This document shows, in pieces, positions 32,683-39,141 of a stretch of 64,000 bases of DNA (its first letter is position 1; every line of letters begins with the position of its first letter). The position numbers were made by a program, and so were the translations under genes. The notes beneath the pieces were generated by a model. It had not been told where the DNA came from. It worked only from the letters and a program-made list of their open reading frames with translations, and made no database searches. This DNA comes from Robiginitomaculum sp. (GTDB lineage Bacteria; Pseudomonadota; Alphaproteobacteria; Caulobacterales; Maricaulaceae): assembly GCA_002733495.1 (NCBI GenBank), contig NVVV01000004.1, positions 32,806 through 96,805 on the forward strand, written 5' to 3'.

Positions 32683-34185
32683 ATGAGCTATTCTTCCCTG
32701 AGAGATTATCTGGCGGCGCTAAAAGTCGATGGCCTTTATAAGCGGGTGCAGACCACGGTTTCAACCGATATGGAACTGACCGAAATCGGCTGTCGGCTGA
32801 TCCGCAAAGGTGGTCCGGCGGTGCTCTTTGAAAACGTGCAGACAGAGACAGGCGCCGCCTCAGACATGCCGGTGCTGATCAATCTGTTTGGCACGGTCGA
32901 GCGCGTGGCGCGCGGCGTTACCATGGGCGGCAAGACACGAACCACAGCGCAGGATCTGCGCGAAGTGGGCGAATTGTTGGCCTTTATGCGCCAGCCCGAG
33001 CCGCCGCGCGGTGTCGGTGATGCCTTGAAACTTGCCCCCCTGATTAAAACCGTGATGGCCATGCGGCCCAAAATCGTACGCAAGGCCCCCTGTCAGGACG
33101 TGGTGCTGATGGGCAAGGACGCATCCCTTGATCGCCTGCCGATCCAGACCTGTTGGCCGGGCGAGCCAGCGCCCCTGATCACCTGGCCATTGGTGGTGAC
33201 ACGCGGGCCGGGCAAGGCCGCCGAAGACAATACCAATCTTGGTATTTACCGGATGCAAAAGCTGGGGCCTCATAAAACCATTATGCGCTGGTTGGCCCAT
33301 CGCGGCGGGGCGCAGCAATTTGCGCGCTTTAAAGCGGCCAATCCCGGCAGGCCCATGCCGCTGGCTGCGGTCATTGGGGCCGACCCCGGCACCATTTTGG
33401 CCGCCGTAACCCCGGTGCCTGATACGTTATCTGAGTATCAGTTTGCCGGGCTGTTGCGCGGTAAAAAGGCCGAACTGGTCAAATGTAAAACCATAGATTT
33501 GCATGTGCCCGCCGAGGCCGAAATTGTTATTGAAGGGCATGTTCACCCCACAAAGACCGCGCCTGAAGGCCCTTACGGCGATCATACGGGCTATTATAAT
33601 TCGGTTGAAAATTTCCCGGTCTTTGAGATCAGCGCCATCACCATGCGCGAAGACCCGATGTATTTAAGTACCTATACGGGCCGCCCGCCGGACGAGCCAA
33701 GTGTTTTGGGTGAGGCACTAAACGAGGTGTTTATTCCGCTGCTGCAACAGCAATTTCCCGAGATTACGGACTTTTATTTGCCCCCCGAGGCCTGTTCCTA
33801 TCGCATTGCCGTGATCTCCATGAAGAAAGCCTATGCGGGCCATGCCAAACGGGTGATGATGGGCGCATGGTCATATTTGCGGCAGTTCACATATACCAAA
33901 TGGCTGATCATTGTGGATGATGATATTAACGCCCGCGATTGGAAAGATGTGATGTGGGCCATCTCCACCCGCATGGACCCGGCGCGGGACTGTGTGACTG
34001 TGGAAAACACCCCGATTGATTATCTGGACTTTGCCTCGCCGGTTTCTGGCCTTGGCTCCAAAATGGGCTTGGATGCCACCAATAAATGGCCAGGCGAAAC
34101 CACACGCGAATGGGGCCGCGAGATAAAAATGGACGCCGCGGTTATCGCCGCCGTCACCGCAAAATGGGACAAGATGGGCCTGTGA
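32683..34185 (+). CDS. ubiD: UbiD family decarboxylase (4-hydroxy-3-polyprenylbenzoate decarboxylase)
   Basis: 500 aa. Contains LRDYL..L...G.....V.......ELTEI..R....GGPA.LFEN., ..N.GIYRMQ and ..EGP.GDHTGYY. Confidence 0.9.
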
Positions 34186-34823
34186 GCGTTCCGCCAGAGC
34201 ATTTACGTTATGCCAGCGCCTCCGCAGCGGTACAAAAAAAGGCCTTTATCGACCTGATTAATCAAAACCCGACCAATGCCGAGATATGGAAGCGCATGCC
34301 GGCTCTGGCCTTGCCGCAGGGCATGCTGGTCTCTGGCTGCCTTTATCAAAGCGTCTGGAATATCCTTCTTGGGCATGATCCATGCCGGGGTATTCGCGAT
34401 TATGATCTGGTCTATTTTGATGATGGAGATCTGTCCTATGAGGCTGAGGACAAAGTGATCAAGACGTGCGCCGCCGTCTTTGCTGATTTAGGCGTAGAGG
34501 TTGAGGTGCGTAATCAGGCGCGGGTGCATCTGTGGTTCAAGGACCGTTTTGGCTTTGATTATACGCCGCTGCAAAACGCCGCCCAGTCTCTTTTGCGCTA
34601 TATGTCGCCCTGTCATGCGGTGGCCGCAGAGCCAGACAGCAAAGGTAATTTGAAACTTCACGCGCCCTTTGGCCTGGATGACGTGTTTGGCTTTATGGTG
34701 CGCCCACGTGAGGGTGATGCCGAAATTTCATCCACATCTTACCAGAAAAAAGCCGCACGGATGAAGGCGCTTTGGCCGGAGCTGACCGTTGTGCCGCTAC
34801 CATCCGGCGCAAATAAAAACTAA
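34182..34823 (+). CDS. nucleotidyltransferase family protein (NTP_transf_6/DUF925-like)
   Basis: GTG 34182 overlaps the ubiD stop (GTGA). Contains ..[12 protein letters not shown]......[20 protein letters not shown], typical of this family as I recall it. The in-frame ORF upstream of 34182 lies inside ubiD. Confidence 0.6.
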
Positions 34824-34881
34824 CATATATTAGCATGCATCTATTTGCTGGAGAGAGTACCAAGGAAAGAAGCAATTACCT

Positions 34882-35949
34882 ATGGAAGACAAGCCCAAAA
34901 ACTTAAAATCAGATATATGTGTGAATAGATGGCTCTCTATGCTGAAAAAGCCACATATTGCCCCTCTTACGCAATTTGTTGATGAACTGAAAAAAGAGCT
35001 AGGAGCCGGGGTTGGAATCCCCTATTTCGATCCTCTAGACGGCGGAATTAACGCGAGACTTCTTTGGGTATTGGAAACCCCTGGGCCAAAGGCTGTTGGA
35101 ACGAATTTTGTCTCACGTGACAACCCTGATCTCACCGCCAAGAACACGTCTATAATTTTCAAAAAAACAGGAATTAAGAAAGAGGATACGGTGCTATGGA
35201 ATGTGGTTCCATGGAATCTGAGCACAGAAGAAGAAAACCAAAACCCCAATGCTGCCGAGATACGCCGAGGAATACCTTATTTATTGCGCCTGATAAAAAT
35301 ATTGCCCAAGCTGGAGGCCGTCGTTTTGTGCGGCAACTCCGCCAAAAGAGCGGCACAAAGCATTCGTGAGTCAACCAAACTCAAGGTTTTTAAGACGTAC
35401 CATCCAGCGGGACGATCTTATAACATAACTAAATATAGGGACGACATTCACAATGCAATGAGGGATGTCGCAAACTTCCTGTATGAGGGTAACGACAACG
35501 TGGGGATATTTAATCTGGTCCCAGAAATCGGTAGACATCAGGATAAAAGTACAAGGAAATCAGTCAATATGCAAAACGCCAATCCGCCGTTGAGGGGCAC
35601 TGGTTATTCAGTTGAGAGCCACATAGAAAAGACAAATAACGAATGTAGAGCCATATTTCAGGAGTTATTTAATCGTATTATGGAGCTACATCCTGCGGTG
35701 ACAGAAAAGGCAGTTAAAGTCCTTGTTGGTTATAAAGCTAGGTACAACTTCGCAGAAATTCACTTTCTCGGCAATCGTCTTAAAATTCATCTTAGACCAA
35801 AGTCTTATTTCGACCCAAGAGAGCTGGTTGCACACCTTGAGAATGCTGGTATCATAATGAATCGCCGTGTTTATATATCCTCAAAAAAAGATATCGAATA
35901 CATTATGTCGCTCATAAAACAATCATATGAAGACGTGGCTTTCATCTAG
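34882..35949 (+). CDS. UDG-superfamily-like domain fused to a DUF5655-like C-terminal domain (AT-rich islet gene)
   Basis: The N-terminal half has ARLLWVLETPGPKA (compare UDG motif A, GEAPG), VLWNVVPW, AVVLCGNSAKRA and FKTYHPAGRSY (compare motif B, HPS). The C-terminal part reads KVLVGYKARYNFAEIHFLGNRLKIHLRP...YISSKKDIEYIMSLIKQSYE. Hand-counted GC is about 33-40% against about 58% in the flanks. Confidence 0.6.
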   Translation: MEDKPKNLKSDICVNRWLSMLKKPHIAPLTQFVDELKKELGAGVGIPYFDPLDGGINARLLWVLETPGPKAVGTNFVSRDNPDLTAKNTSIIFKKTGIKKEDTVLWNVVPWNLSTEEENQNPNAAEIRRGIPYLLRLIKILPKLEAVVLCGNSAKRAAQSIRESTKLKVFKTYHPAGRSYNITKYRDDIHNAMRDVANFLYEGNDNVGIFNLVPEIGRHQDKSTRKSVNMQNANPPLRGTGYSVESHIEKTNNECRAIFQELFNRIMELHPAVTEKAVKVLVGYKARYNFAEIHFLGNRLKIHLRPKSYFDPRELVAHLENAGIIMNRRVYISSKKDIEYIMSLIKQSYEDVAFI

Positions 35950-35972
35950 ATTTTGACGGTTTTACTGCTTTC

Positions 35973-36545
35973 TTAAAACGGTAAGACCTTGCGTTTGCGG
36001 CTGTATTTCAAATAGCCCACACTGGCCCCAAGGCGCAGGCCCGCGCCCGAGCGCATGGGCACCAGCGTGATATTGTGTCCGCGTTGATAATTAATGCCCA
36101 TACCGGCAATCAGATAGGCCGAGCCATCAACGCCGGGAAAGCGCTGATAAATATTTTCAAAATCCTGCAGGCCATAAATCAGGGTAAACACTTTTGAGCC
36201 ATTGCCGCCCACATCAAAACCGATGGACGGGCCTTGCCAGTAGACGATTTCGCGGGTGCCGTCTTTTAAGACCATAGTGCCTTTGCCATACCGCAAGCCA
36301 ACCCCAATGGCGGCGGAGCCTTCACCCCCGTAAATATAGCCAATTGGGCGGCCTTGTTTGGCAAAAATGCTCTCTACGGCGGACCCGGCGGCCTCGGAGG
36401 TGACACCGAAAAAGTCTGAAACCGCATTGGTGACTTCGCTGCGCCCATAGGTCGCTTCATCGGCGGGGGCTCTTTCCTGTGCCTGCGCAAAGTTGGGCAT
36501 TGCGGGCATGGCAAAGAGGGTCAATATAAAAAGGATGCGGTACAT
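35973..36545 (-). CDS. DUF1134-like (EipA-like) periplasmic protein
   Basis: The signal peptide [22 protein letters not shown] with the RBS GGAGAA fixes the start at 36545. The Gly-rich beta body (..[22 protein letters not shown]..) fits this family. The upstream part of the 306-aa ORF overlaps lepA and is discounted. Confidence 0.65.
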
Positions 36546-36638
36546 AAGGTTCTCCATTATCTTATTCATCATGCCCGGTCTGGCGCCGTATGGGAAGGGC
36601 GCTTGGCGCAGGACAGCGTTGCTGCTAAGTCCCCATTT

Positions 36639-38447
36639 ATGACCATAGATCCTAAACATATTCGCAATTTTGCCATTGTCGCCCATATCGACCACGGTAA
36701 ATCCACGCTGGCCGACCGCCTGATCCAGGAAACCGGCGGCCTTAGCGCCCGCGAAATGAAAGCCCAAGTGCTCGACAGCATGGATATTGAGCGCGAACGG
36801 GGCATTACCATCAAGGCGCAAACCGTGCGCCTTGAATATAAAGCCCAGGATGGTCAGGATTATGTTCTGAACCTTATGGACACGCCGGGCCATGTGGACT
36901 TTGCCTATGAGGTGTCGCGCTCGCTCTCGGCCTGCGAAGGCTCACTTCTGGTTGTTGATGCCAGCCAGGGGGTTGAGGCGCAAACGCTGGCCAATGTGTA
37001 TCAGGCGCTGGACCACGATCATGATATCGTTTCCATCTTGAATAAAATTGATCTGCCTGCCGCTGAGCCGGACCGTATTCGCCAGCAGATCGAGGATGTC
37101 ATTGGGCTGGACGCCAGTGATGCCATCGAGGTTTCGGCCAAAACCGGCCAGGGCATCCCTGAGGTCTTGGAGGCCATTGTCAAGCAATTGCCGGCACCAA
37201 TGTCCGGTGATCCTGAGGCACCCTTAAAGGCATTGCTGGTCGACGCCTGGTATGACACTTATCTGGGGGTGGTGGTTCTTTTTCGCATGCTCGAAGGCAC
37301 AGCGAAAAAGGGCTTGCGCATCAAGATGATGTCCAATGGCTCGTCCTATGTGCTGGACCGGGTTGGGGTGTTTCGTCCCAAGGCCGAGGAAGTGGCGTCG
37401 TTGGGGCCGGGCGAAATTGGCTTTTTTACCGCCTCCATCAAGGAAGTGGCCGACGCCGCCGTTGGCGATACCATCACCGAAGAAAAACGCCCCACCAAAG
37501 TGGCGCTAAAAGGCTTTCGGCCGGTCCAGCCGGTGGTTTTTTGCGGCATATTCCCGGTCGATGCCGCCGATTTTGAAGATCTGCGCGCTGCCGTGGGCAG
37601 ATTGCGCCTCAATGACGCCAGTTTTTCCTATGAAATGGAAACCTCTGCGGCGCTGGGCTTTGGCTTTCGCTGTGGGTTTTTAGGGCTGCTGCACCTGGAG
37701 ATCATTCAGGAACGCCTGGAGCGTGAATTTAATCTCGACCTGATCGCTACCGCCCCCAGCGTGGTGTACCAGATCGCCATGAGCGATGGCAGCCAGATGG
37801 AGCTGCACAACCCGGCGGACATGCCGGACCCGGTACGCATCGAAAGTATTGCCGAGCCGTGGATCAAAGCCACCATTTTAACGCCGGACGAATATGTCGG
37901 CGCGGTACTCAAGCTTTGTCAGGATAGGCGCGGCGTGCAAACGGCGCTGACCTATGTGGGCAGCCGGGCGATGATTGAATACGAATTGCCGCTGAACGAA
38001 GTGGTGTTTGATTTTTATGACCGGCTGAAATCCCTGACCAAAGGGTATGCCAGCTTTGATTATTCGATGATCGGCTATCGCGAGGGGGATCTGGTGAAAA
38101 TGTCGATCCTGGTGAATGCCGAGCCTGTGGACGCGCTTTCCATGCTGGTGCACCGTTCCCGCGCCGAGGCTCGAGGCCGGGTAATGTGCGAAAAACTGAA
38201 AGACCTGATCCCGCGTCACATGTTCAAAATCCCCATTCAGGCGGCCATTGGCGGACGGGTGATTGCCAGAGAGACTATTGCCGCTTTGCGCAAGGATGTG
38301 ACGGCAAAATGTTATGGCGGCGATGCCACCCGCAAACGCAAACTGCTGGACAAACAAAAGGCCGGCAAGAAGAAAATGCGCCAGTTTGGCAAGGTGGAAA
38401 TCCCCCAAACCGCCTTTATTGCGGCACTGAAAATGGATGGGGATTAA
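36639..38447 (+). CDS. lepA: translation elongation factor 4 (LepA)
   Basis: Contains [29 protein letters not shown] and NKIDLP, plus the LepA C-terminal domain. The start is at MTIDPKH (ATG 36639), giving 602 aa. Confidence 0.95.
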
Positions 38448-38779: not shown

Positions 38780-39079
38780 CTACATGTTACTGATTTTATC
38801 CCACAAATCATGCCATTGCGAATTGTCTTTCTCGATAAGCGCAATCTTCCAGGCTCGCTTCCATCGTTTAATTCTTTTTTCTCGTAACAGTCCGATATGT
38901 GGCTCTGTATGGTGTTCAAACCAAACAAGCCGGGTGACATCATATTTTTTAGTGAAACCGGGAACCACTTTATTTTTATGTTGCCAAACTCGTTCTACAA
39001 GATTGTCTGTGGCCCCGACATAAAGGGTTCCATTGGGTTGGCTGGCCAGGATGTAGACATAGAAATTAATCTGGTTCAT
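38780..39079 (-). CDS. GIY-YIG nuclease family protein (UPF0213-like)
   Basis: MNQINFYVYILASQPNGTLYVGATDNLVERVWQHK......FTKKY.V.RLVWFE........REK.IK.W.R..K..LIE carries the GIY and YVG motifs and the conserved Arg/Glu. It is low in GC. Confidence 0.85.
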   Translation of the reverse strand: MNQINFYVYILASQPNGTLYVGATDNLVERVWQHKNKVVPGFTKKYDVTRLVWFEHHTEPHIGLLREKRIKRWKRAWKIALIEKDNSQWHDLWDKISNM

Positions 39080-39141
39080 CGCATTAAGGTGATGAATGCA
39101 ATGCAAAAACGCAAGCTGCGTTGAATTTAAAACACTTGGCT

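Follow-up and report, generated by a model that had tools for sequence, protein, structure and literature searches.

What is a single AT-rich gene, encoding a protein that resembles a uracil-DNA glycosylase (UDG), doing among the housekeeping genes of Robiginitomaculum sp.? The question is raised by positions 34824–35972 of a 64,000-nt stretch of contig NVVV01000004.1 (this whole stretch is referred to as the window), where an initial annotation made from the sequence alone had proposed a laterally acquired and possibly anti-phage glycosylase with a DUF5655-like domain at its C terminus. The gene, referred to here as UDG::DUF5655, was followed up by computational analysis. We judge the chances to be evenly balanced that its product is a single-gene defence glycosylase which would act on invading DNA with non-canonical, probably uracil- or thymine-type, bases, on the principle of Brig1, Brig2 and Brig3; this reading draws on sequence comparison, on predicted structures and on gene neighbourhoods.

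The gap in which the gene lies runs from the TAA of the PF06042 nucleotidyltransferase (NTP_transf_6) gene, which ends at 34823, to the complement of the eipA stop, which starts at 35973 (EipA was formerly known as DUF1134). A six-frame list of open reading frames (ORFs) confirmed that a single ORF of 355 amino acids (aa), convergent to eipA, occupies this gap. The islet of 1149 bp had a GC content of 41.9% compared to 55.6% in the four flanking genes (ubiD to NTP_transf_6 and eipA to lepA), so that the AT-rich segment of about 1.15 kb described in the initial annotation was found with the borders given there, and its hand counts of G+C proved to be exact (35/60 at 34561, 20/60 at 34861 and 23/60 at 35761). 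With 42.3% GC against 53.7% for the window, the UDG::DUF5655 gene was the global GC minimum of the window (z = -3.8; 0.1% of 1068-bp windows were equally low), and its GC at third codon positions was 0.43 against 0.57–0.66 in ubiD, NTP_transf_6, eipA and lepA. No tRNA was located within 7 kb of the islet, no integrase was found in its surroundings, and the search for flanking direct or inverted repeats gave nothing above chance-level short matches, in agreement with what had been noted at the borders before. The remainder of the window carries ordinary housekeeping genes (ferrochelatase, MnmE/MnmG, AdoHcy hydrolase, LeuRS, DHODH and others).

The same locus was then fetched from five other Robiginitomaculum metagenome-assembled genomes (MAGs) with EipA as the anchor. 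The order VOC-ubiD-NTP_transf_6-eipA-lepA was kept in all five with 68–98% protein identity, and the UDG::DUF5655 gene was absent from the locus in 5/5, with no remnant of the islet detected by blastn. This comparison of the ubiD-lepA region bore out the lateral acquisition that had been claimed. NTP_transf_6 was considered as part of the islet and rejected, since all five relatives retain this gene and its GC is native. The gap between NTP_transf_6 and eipA measured 5 bp in one relative and consisted of 185–201 bp of non-coding DNA in two others, while in the remaining two it was approximately 508 bp and contained an ORF (about 140 aa) which is unrelated and looks secreted (signal-peptide-like N terminus). 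Because the content of the gap differs between relatives, the NTP_transf_6/eipA junction is taken to be a recurrent insertion point; no att-like repeats were recognisable at it. These observations show that the UDG::DUF5655 gene is a strain-specific, low-GC insertion, horizontally acquired and placed at a variable intergenic spot among housekeeping genes. A stand-alone UDG with 70% identity (P0005) was found at a different locus of another Robiginitomaculum MAG, beside lipid A genes. In the same small region, one relative carried a further strain-specific insertion between ubiD and NTP_transf_6, a secreted-esterase-like ORF of about 880 bp (L005 7402-8285).

A gene that has arrived in this way could be a functionless passenger, that is, a recently inserted fragment of a mobile element which is silent or decaying. 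No promoter was recognisable above chance upstream of the gene, no mobility genes are left, and the protein has one exact copy in the databases, the hypothetical protein COA84_02460 from a Robiginitomaculum sp. MAG, as would be expected of such a remnant. Against this, the ORF is not truncated when compared with its fusion relatives of 344–347 aa, its start agrees with the start in homologues and its conserved motif residues are intact; the gene also lies 58 bp downstream of ubiD/NTP_transf_6 in the same orientation, with no terminator-like site between. We therefore regard a silent fragment as highly improbable.

For the N-terminal part of the protein, the Pfam UDG model (PF03167) was matched over aa 57–184 with 45.8 bits compared to a gathering cut-off of 24.3. 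Sequence searches of the PDB with either the single protein or a 42-sequence profile were marginal (E 0.03–1.3, with a best profile E of 0.03–0.05), and so the fold had to come from a predicted structure. An AlphaFold2 model based on a 50-sequence alignment had block-mean pLDDT values of approximately 87–98 over residues 11–200. When this domain was searched against the PDB with Foldseek, 68 matches at E ≤ 0.001 were obtained, and the best 50 of the 68 were almost all from the UDG superfamily. The top matches (E ~1e-8, probability 1.0, target TM 0.55–0.70) were the family 4 UDGs 4ZBX/4ZBY of S. tokodaii, 1L9G/1VK2 of T. maritima and 1UI0 of T. thermophilus together with UdgX, and the runners-up were family 5, SMUG1 and UNG. 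The Pfam match and the model together confirm the UDG fold of the N-terminal 205 aa, which had been suspected from the letters.

A HMMER alignment to the T. maritima UDG spanned the whole domain and superposed four motif elements, namely VLETPG on VGEGPG (motif A), FVSR on FVGR (the stacking Phe), WNVVPW on CNVVKC (the base-reading Asn) and HPA on HPS (motif B). The four elements singled out by the initial annotation thus fall on family 4 motif A, stacking Phe, base-reading Asn and motif B. In an alignment of 42 members of the clade to which the domain belongs, from which all conservation counts are taken, the catalytic residues were retained almost without exception (E65 41/42, F76 42/42, N107 42/42, H174 41/42). 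The family 4-type catalytic set is therefore intact, and the protein is a predicted glycosylase. P67 and G68 were each kept in 41/42, and W106, V109 and P110 were invariant (42/42 each). A signature specific to the clade was seen near F76 (S78, R79 and N81 in 42/42 each, D83 in 41/42), and H25, P47, D50, D53 and G55 of its N-terminal motifs were present in every sequence (42/42 each). Motif A had been called non-canonical, and the first Gly of the family 4 motif is indeed replaced by Leu or Phe in all clade members, but the departure is mild, as the E-A-P-G core is kept (consensus LEAPGP). In motif B only H-P-(S/A) is kept, followed by P-x-F-V-N in the clade and by G-R-S-Y-N in the 355-aa protein, with no terminal Arg.

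The larger difference from family 4 concerns the iron-sulfur (Fe-S) cluster. Family 4 is defined by motif A GE(A/G)PG, motif B HPS(S/A)(L/V)(L/V)R and a [4Fe-4S] cluster held by four Cys residues (PMC10359453). Both Cys residues that flank NVVK in the T. maritima UDG are Trp in the 355-aa protein, and the 42-sequence alignment contained no conserved Cys column; with eight members devoid of Cys and 37 of the 42 holding fewer than four, a [4Fe-4S] cluster is impossible in the clade. The NCBIfam family 4 models gave scores far below their cut-offs (TIGR00758, 24.4 vs 125.3 bits; NF040953, 30.5 vs 250 bits). On these sequence criteria, the missing Fe-S Cys residues and the low model scores, the clade is an Fe-S-free relative of family 4 and not a member, and the real departure from that family is the loss of the cluster and not the change in motif A.

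The presence of UdgX structures among the best Foldseek matches raises another possibility, a non-hydrolytic reader or trap with a UDG fold that would bind a lesion or modified base and block replication or recruit factors, much as UdgX does, which becomes cross-linked to abasic DNA of its own making. The additional invariant S-R-x-N-x-D signature beside the stacking Phe would also fit a protein of this kind. The R-loop KRRIH that defines UdgX, with His109 (PMC10359453), has no counterpart in the conserved motifs of the clade, however, and the catalytic Glu, Asn and His are all kept, which makes a non-hydrolytic trap very unlikely.

Approximately 220 clusters of a 90%-identity protein collection shared 37–46% identity with aa 1–205, most of which were stand-alone proteins of about 200–210 aa, and a metagenome scan contained more than 443 loci of the clade. 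The members are mostly proteobacterial or environmental and are annotated by pipelines simply as 'uracil-DNA glycosylase'. Homologues were present on 97 plasmid records and on 0 of 50,697 GenBank phage records, and the N-domain matched no model in PADLOC v2. The fusion to DUF5655 is rare, with about five clusters (P0001–P0004, P0123 and fragments). In 91 related loci (L022–L112) no DUF5655 fused or adjacent to a UDG homologue was found with a local hidden Markov model (HMM) run with a positive control, and a neighbour that matches PDC-S18 (PADLOC model PDLC04944) is accordingly without recognisable DUF5655. Other architectures were also observed in the clade: P0010 (354 aa) carries two UDG domains in tandem, P0088 has an HTH_11 regulator-like N-terminal region fused to the UDG domain, and P0013 and P0042 are extended at the C terminus by regions of unknown fold, that of P0013 seeming to hold a hydrophobic segment.

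The C-terminal ~110 aa were confirmed as DUF5655 (PF18899) by a Pfam match above the gathering threshold (aa 244–350, 47.3 bits, cut-off 24) which covered 107 of 109 model positions. This domain was partly unresolved in the first full-length model and was re-modelled on a deeper, 33-sequence alignment, giving a dedicated model with pLDDT 91.9 and pTM 0.85. The best PDB matches obtained with Foldseek were the YdhG-like/DUF1801 proteins 9T2W (TM 0.60, probability 0.99), 2OC6 and 2I8D, at an E of 0.045 and with 14–15% identity, and a DUF1801 protein in locus L115 weakly matches the DUF5655 model. A likeness to the MotA C-terminal domain in a Foldseek search against viral proteins was non-significant (E 0.08) and was not relied on; the other matches in that search were uncharacterised DUF5655 proteins only. 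DUF5655 has no more than two near-invariant positions, so that the domain is unlikely to be enzymatic and we infer that it is non-catalytic.

An exhaustive HMMER search placed the DUF5655 family at 642 representative clusters, where word-indexed searches were far less sensitive (two matches with the C-domain alone, 40 with the DUF5655 profile). The partner domains in 88 multidomain DUF5655 proteins were NucS_C (nine), GmrSD_C (seven), T5orf172 (six), MUG113 (five) and GmrSD_N (four), with SRAP, PDDEXK_9, Shedu SduA_C, DUF3320 and ankyrin seen once each. GIY-YIG is also among the fusion partners, and the DUF5655 domain of an HNH::DUF5655 protein (P0076) was 60% identical to that of the window protein. 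PADLOC PDC-S18 models matched aa 219–352 only (model positions 187–301/302 or 187–323/365), leaving their N-terminal effector part unmatched. When DUF5655 was used in a tblastn search of plasmids, 9/9 matches lay inside DUF262/DUF1524 (GmrSD-family) genes. The closest stand-alone relative with genomic context was found at L114 1768-2657, where a NucS_C-like gene (138 aa) overlaps the DUF5655 gene (158 aa) by 4 bp and a TaqI_C gene and a DDE transposase adjoin; this pair represents either a PDC-S18-like protein that is split in nature or one interrupted by a frameshift. The contigs of the closest stand-alone DUF5655 protein were too short to be informative. These fusion partners and contexts show that DUF5655 is repeatedly appended to effectors that attack DNA, most of them of the defence type. 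Literature searches on DUF5655 and PDC-S18 returned nothing relevant. One of the nine plasmid matches, a GmrSD with C-terminal DUF5655 on the Ruegeria sp. TM1040 megaplasmid (L021 6291-8390), is inserted in a type I restriction-modification (RM) operon on an integrase/AlpA island, with hsdS on one side and the helicase/R subunit on the other, i.e. one defence gene nested in another defence system.

For eight homologues of the UDG domain that lie on long contigs, the individual neighbouring genes were examined. P0026 (Chlorobium phaeobacteroides) adjoins two Mrr_cat/NA-iREase1 genes, which encode Mrr-type restriction endonucleases (REases), within an integrase/AlpA/DUF3987 island. P0028 adjoins an rve transposase, a REase-ARP gene and a DNA methylase, and P0078 is flanked by a GIY-YIG protein and an N6_N4 methylase/XcyI RM pair. 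P0037 directly follows type I hsdR-M-S and has a ThsB-TIR gene close by, P0105 is 4 bp downstream of an integrase, and P0047 adjoins an Eco57I-type RM gene, an HNH gene and MazE/PIN. On the question whether homologues lie in defence islands, six of the eight were thus found beside RM, integrase, transposase or toxin-antitoxin genes, and P0005 and P0095 are singletons amid housekeeping genes.

A census was also made of the two nearest ORFs on each side of the clade member at 36 non-redundant loci, using a simple greedy ORF caller, and gave 129 ORFs. No conserved operon partner was identified among these 129 neighbours. They produced 143 PADLOC model matches, including a type IIG RM enzyme (9e-208), type II methylases (~1e-81 to 1e-88), PD-T4-6, MADS components, PDC-S37, MkoA, PbeA and PtuB, and Pfam added Type ISP, HipA and S24 repressors as well as plain housekeeping proteins. 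When 65 housekeeping ORFs from the window were put through the same procedure as a control, 21 weak matches resulted, all of them generic AAA/GTPase cross-matches (best 6e-37) with no RM component; as it is one 64-kb region, this is a rough control and not a statistic. The comparison nevertheless indicates that defence and mobile genes are genuinely enriched near clade members. At an unrelated locus (L011) a GIY_YIG_3 gene was noted directly upstream of a clade homologue.

In the mechanism we propose, the enzyme would flip the base out of the DNA and hydrolyse the N-glycosidic bond, as in the UDG superfamily generally, and the abasic sites left would stall replication and be nicked by apurinic/apyrimidinic (AP) endonucleases, as for Brig1 and Brig3. 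The substrate would be a base that is missing from host DNA, so that self DNA is spared; absence from the host is likely since a one-gene system without a partner 'immunity' gene must not attack self. The invariant Asn107, in the place of a Brig1-type Glu, predicts a uracil- or thymine-type substrate, and 2'-deoxyuridine (dU), 5-hydroxymethyluracil (5-hmU) and hypermodified thymidine of phage DNA are candidates. DUF5655 would probably be an accessory for DNA-targeting defence effectors, with a part in engagement of target or modified DNA, oligomerisation or regulation.

The support for defence over routine repair, from homologue neighbourhoods and DUF5655 partners, is circumstantial, and several points count against it. 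In addition to the two isolated homologues, some plasmid copies of the clade are likewise isolated and some are in metabolic contexts, and the window gene itself stands alone among housekeeping genes, without a neighbour linked to defence. Homologues also occur on eleven IMG/VR contigs, so that predicted viral or prophage DNA carries some of the copies. The census control is coarse, as said. The substrate prediction leans on analogy at a single residue, and an intact uracil-type active site would be equally expected of a repair UDG. The YdhG/DUF1801-like (frataxin-like) fold of the C-domain has no documented nucleic-acid function, and for that reason the role given to DUF5655 is guesswork.

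Many of the same observations would suit an accessory repair glycosylase for uracil or deaminated bases that is carried on mobile DNA and acts on the DNA of the host or element, for example following single-stranded DNA transfer or under stress. DUF5655 would then be a neutral or targeting add-on and the defence neighbours would reflect a general pile-up of accessory genes. The family 4-like active site with its uracil-type Asn and stacking Phe, the pipeline annotations, the many plasmid copies, the singletons (P0005, P0095 and the window gene) and the occurrence of SRAP, an abasic-site repair family, among the DUF5655 partners are all in keeping with this. On the other side stand the patchy, strain-specific distribution and foreign composition of the gene, its dispensability at the locus in 5/5 congeners, the tight adjacency to RM systems or integrases in 6/8 sampled contexts, the loss of the Fe-S cluster that is typical of repair families 4 and 5, and DUF5655 partners which are overwhelmingly restriction or defence nucleases and not repair enzymes. 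On this balance we consider repair on mobile DNA the less likely reading, though a serious competitor, and a defence glycosylase is the reading that we prefer.

The coordinates of the features of the islet are collected in Table 1.

Table 1. Features of the UDG::DUF5655 islet in window positions, and the ORF found at the same spot in two relatives (positions in loci L001 and L002).
Feature	Position	Strand	Remarks
AT-rich 58-bp spacer, NTP_transf_6 stop to start codon	34824..34881	+	Purine-rich AAGGAAAG stretch upstream of ATG
CDS of UDG::DUF5655 fusion, 355 aa	34882..35949	+	TAG stop included
UDG-fold domain (predicted), aa 1–205	34882..35496	+	N-terminal helical extension, clade-specific, with invariant PHIAPLT and PYFDPxDGG
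Motif A equivalent, L64-E-T-P-G-P69	35071..35088	+	Consensus LEAPGP; E65 on Glu of family 4 GE(A/G)PG
F76-V-S-R-D-N-P-D-L-T-A-K-N88	35107..35145	+	F76 on base-stacking Phe of family 4
W106-N-V-V-P-W111	35197..35214	+	N107 on base-recognising Asn of family 4 (N of NVVKC)
Motif B equivalent, H174-P-A-G177	35401..35412	+	Consensus HPSP; H174 kept in 41/42
Basic linker, predicted disordered, aa 206–240	35497..35601	+	pLDDT <50, pI 10.9
DUF5655 domain, aa 241–355	35602..35946	+	YdhG/DUF1801-like alpha/beta fold in model
23-bp spacer to convergent eipA stop	35950..35972	.	Right islet border
ORF of ~140 aa in relatives	L001 6595-7103; L002 6598-7103		Same spot as window 34824-35972

The gene models of the neighbours also deserve comment. 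The longest NTP_transf_6 ORF (34086-34823, +) overlaps the 3' end of ubiD (32683-34185, +) by 100 bp, and as its Pfam domain starts at aa 70 and the relative L005 aligns from aa 39 only, its true start is probably well 3' of 34086. The longest eipA ORF (306 aa, 35973-36893, -) overlaps the start of lepA (36603-38447, +); its EipA domain is at aa 148–306 with a signal-peptide-like start at about aa 108, and the actual eipA gene is probably ~35973-36572. A second AT-rich islet past lepA (38780-39106, -; GC ~0.42-0.43) encodes a 108-aa GIY-YIG (PF01541) protein that was absent in 5/5 Robiginitomaculum relatives, in two of which the distance from lepA to the next gene was 12–50 bp.

Base-excision defence has been established in 2024–2026 only, with Brig1 (2024), Brig2 and the Dag enzymes (2025) and Brig3 (2026), and few families are known. 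The idea of a defence glycosylase is therefore not new in itself. What the present analysis adds is a large Fe-S-free, family 4-like UDG clade with defence and mobile associations, outside PADLOC v2 and with no detectable similarity to Brig1; the fusion of this clade to DUF5655; and the recognition of DUF5655 as an accessory module common to many defence nucleases, of which our literature searches found no discussion. A wider proposal, which we put forward tentatively and as rather doubtful when taken as a whole, is that the LEAPGP/WNVVPW clade comprises widespread, unrecognised Fe-S-free defence glycosylases against uracil- or thymine-type modified phage bases, that DUF5655 is a portable module which engages or senses modified or foreign DNA on varied effectors (GmrSD, NucS-like, HNH, GIY-YIG, Shedu, glycosylase), and that the window protein would be the first 'type IV restriction glycosylase', sharing its accessory module with type IV restriction nucleases. 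If the clade is defensive, many genomes hold a mis-annotated immune gene, and the uracil-type active site would hint at phages with dU, hmU or hypermodified T, which occur commonly in marine systems. If the protein is a repair UDG instead, it would still define an Fe-S-free sister group of family 4. The fusion is in addition a first functional handle on the 642 clusters of DUF5655, and since the partners of this domain are almost all DNA-attacking defence effectors, understanding it would also shed light on type IV restriction enzymes and on PDC-S18.

Compared with known systems, the nearest relatives in structure are the family 4 UDGs of S. tokodaii, T. maritima and T. thermophilus and UdgX, which have the same fold. 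The clade has the motif order of family 4 (E-x-P-G, stacking Phe, N-V-V Asn, H-P-S/A) and differs from it in the lack of the [4Fe-4S] cluster, in the Leu for the first Gly of motif A, in a motif B that goes on as HPSPxFVN, and in its own N-terminal helices and S-R-D/N-N-x-D-x-T-A-x-N signature; the window protein differs further in its fusion to DUF5655, and the genomic context of the clade is mobile or defence-related where that of family 4 is core. UdgX has motif A GEQPG and its R-loop His109 is the cross-linking residue (PMC10359453), whereas motif A here is LETPG and a KRRIH-like element is absent among the conserved columns of the clade, by sequence. The YdhG-like/DUF1801 proteins (9T2W, 2OC6, 2I8D) are like the C-domain in fold but are stand-alone and not known to act on DNA.

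Among the defence glycosylases, Brig1 is an alpha-glucosyl-hmC (hmC, hydroxymethylcytosine) DNA glycosylase (Hossain et al. 2024, PMC11078745) that was shown experimentally to excise a phage-specific base, leaving abasic sites and blocking replication. In Brig1, Glu147 faces the Watson-Crick edge of the cytosine derivative, a position that uracil enzymes fill with Asn, for example N82 in the S. tokodaii UDG, and the stacking residue is Tyr (Y121) (PMC11078745). Its family is small, with 42 homologues that are mostly from Actinobacteria, and relatives are found in defence islands (PMC11078745). The likeness to Brig1 that had been suggested stands for principle and fold, as both have a UDG-superfamily fold, the best PDB match of Brig1 is also the S. 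tokodaii family 4 UDG, and both would be single-gene systems. It does not extend to detectable sequence homology: with a Brig1 sequence taken from a supplement read by optical character recognition, hhalign of the clade profile gave a probability of 0.5% and E = 0.11 over 31 N-terminal columns that do not cover the motifs, and membership of the clade in the Brig1 family was rejected. Brig1 has E147 and Y121 where the clade has invariant Asn107 and Phe76, it is without DUF5655, and its small family contrasts with the large clade described here.

Brig2 is reported as a UDG-like defence against thymidine hypermodification, i.e. uracil- or thymine-type modified bases, with homologues in recently acquired, A/T-rich DNA close to mobile elements (Getz et al. 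2025 preprint). The resemblance to Brig2 is by this description, and consists of the uracil- or thymine-type target, suggested here by the Asn, and the A/T-rich acquired context; the motifs of the clade were not found in the available supplementary text on Brig2. Brig3 is a 5-hydroxymethylcytosine glycosylase described as AAG-like, for which the abasic-site mechanism was demonstrated, with key residues N50, E55, W100, H125 and D127 and an intercalating N225 (Mejia-Pitta et al. 2026 preprint). Compared by description only, this residue pattern and spacing does not map onto the clade motifs. No DUF5655 fusion is mentioned in the descriptions of Brig2 and Brig3.

The domain arrangement resembles that of the GmrSD type IV restriction enzymes and PDC-S18, with which the window protein has in common a C-terminal DUF5655 on what would be a DNA-attacking effector, in a single polypeptide and with no cognate methylase. 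Neither GmrSD_N (DUF262) nor GmrSD_C (DUF1524) was found in the 355-aa protein with Pfam. The effector in these systems is DUF262/DUF1524 or a NucS-like PD-(D/E)XK nuclease, whereas in the window protein this position is taken by a predicted glycosylase fold.

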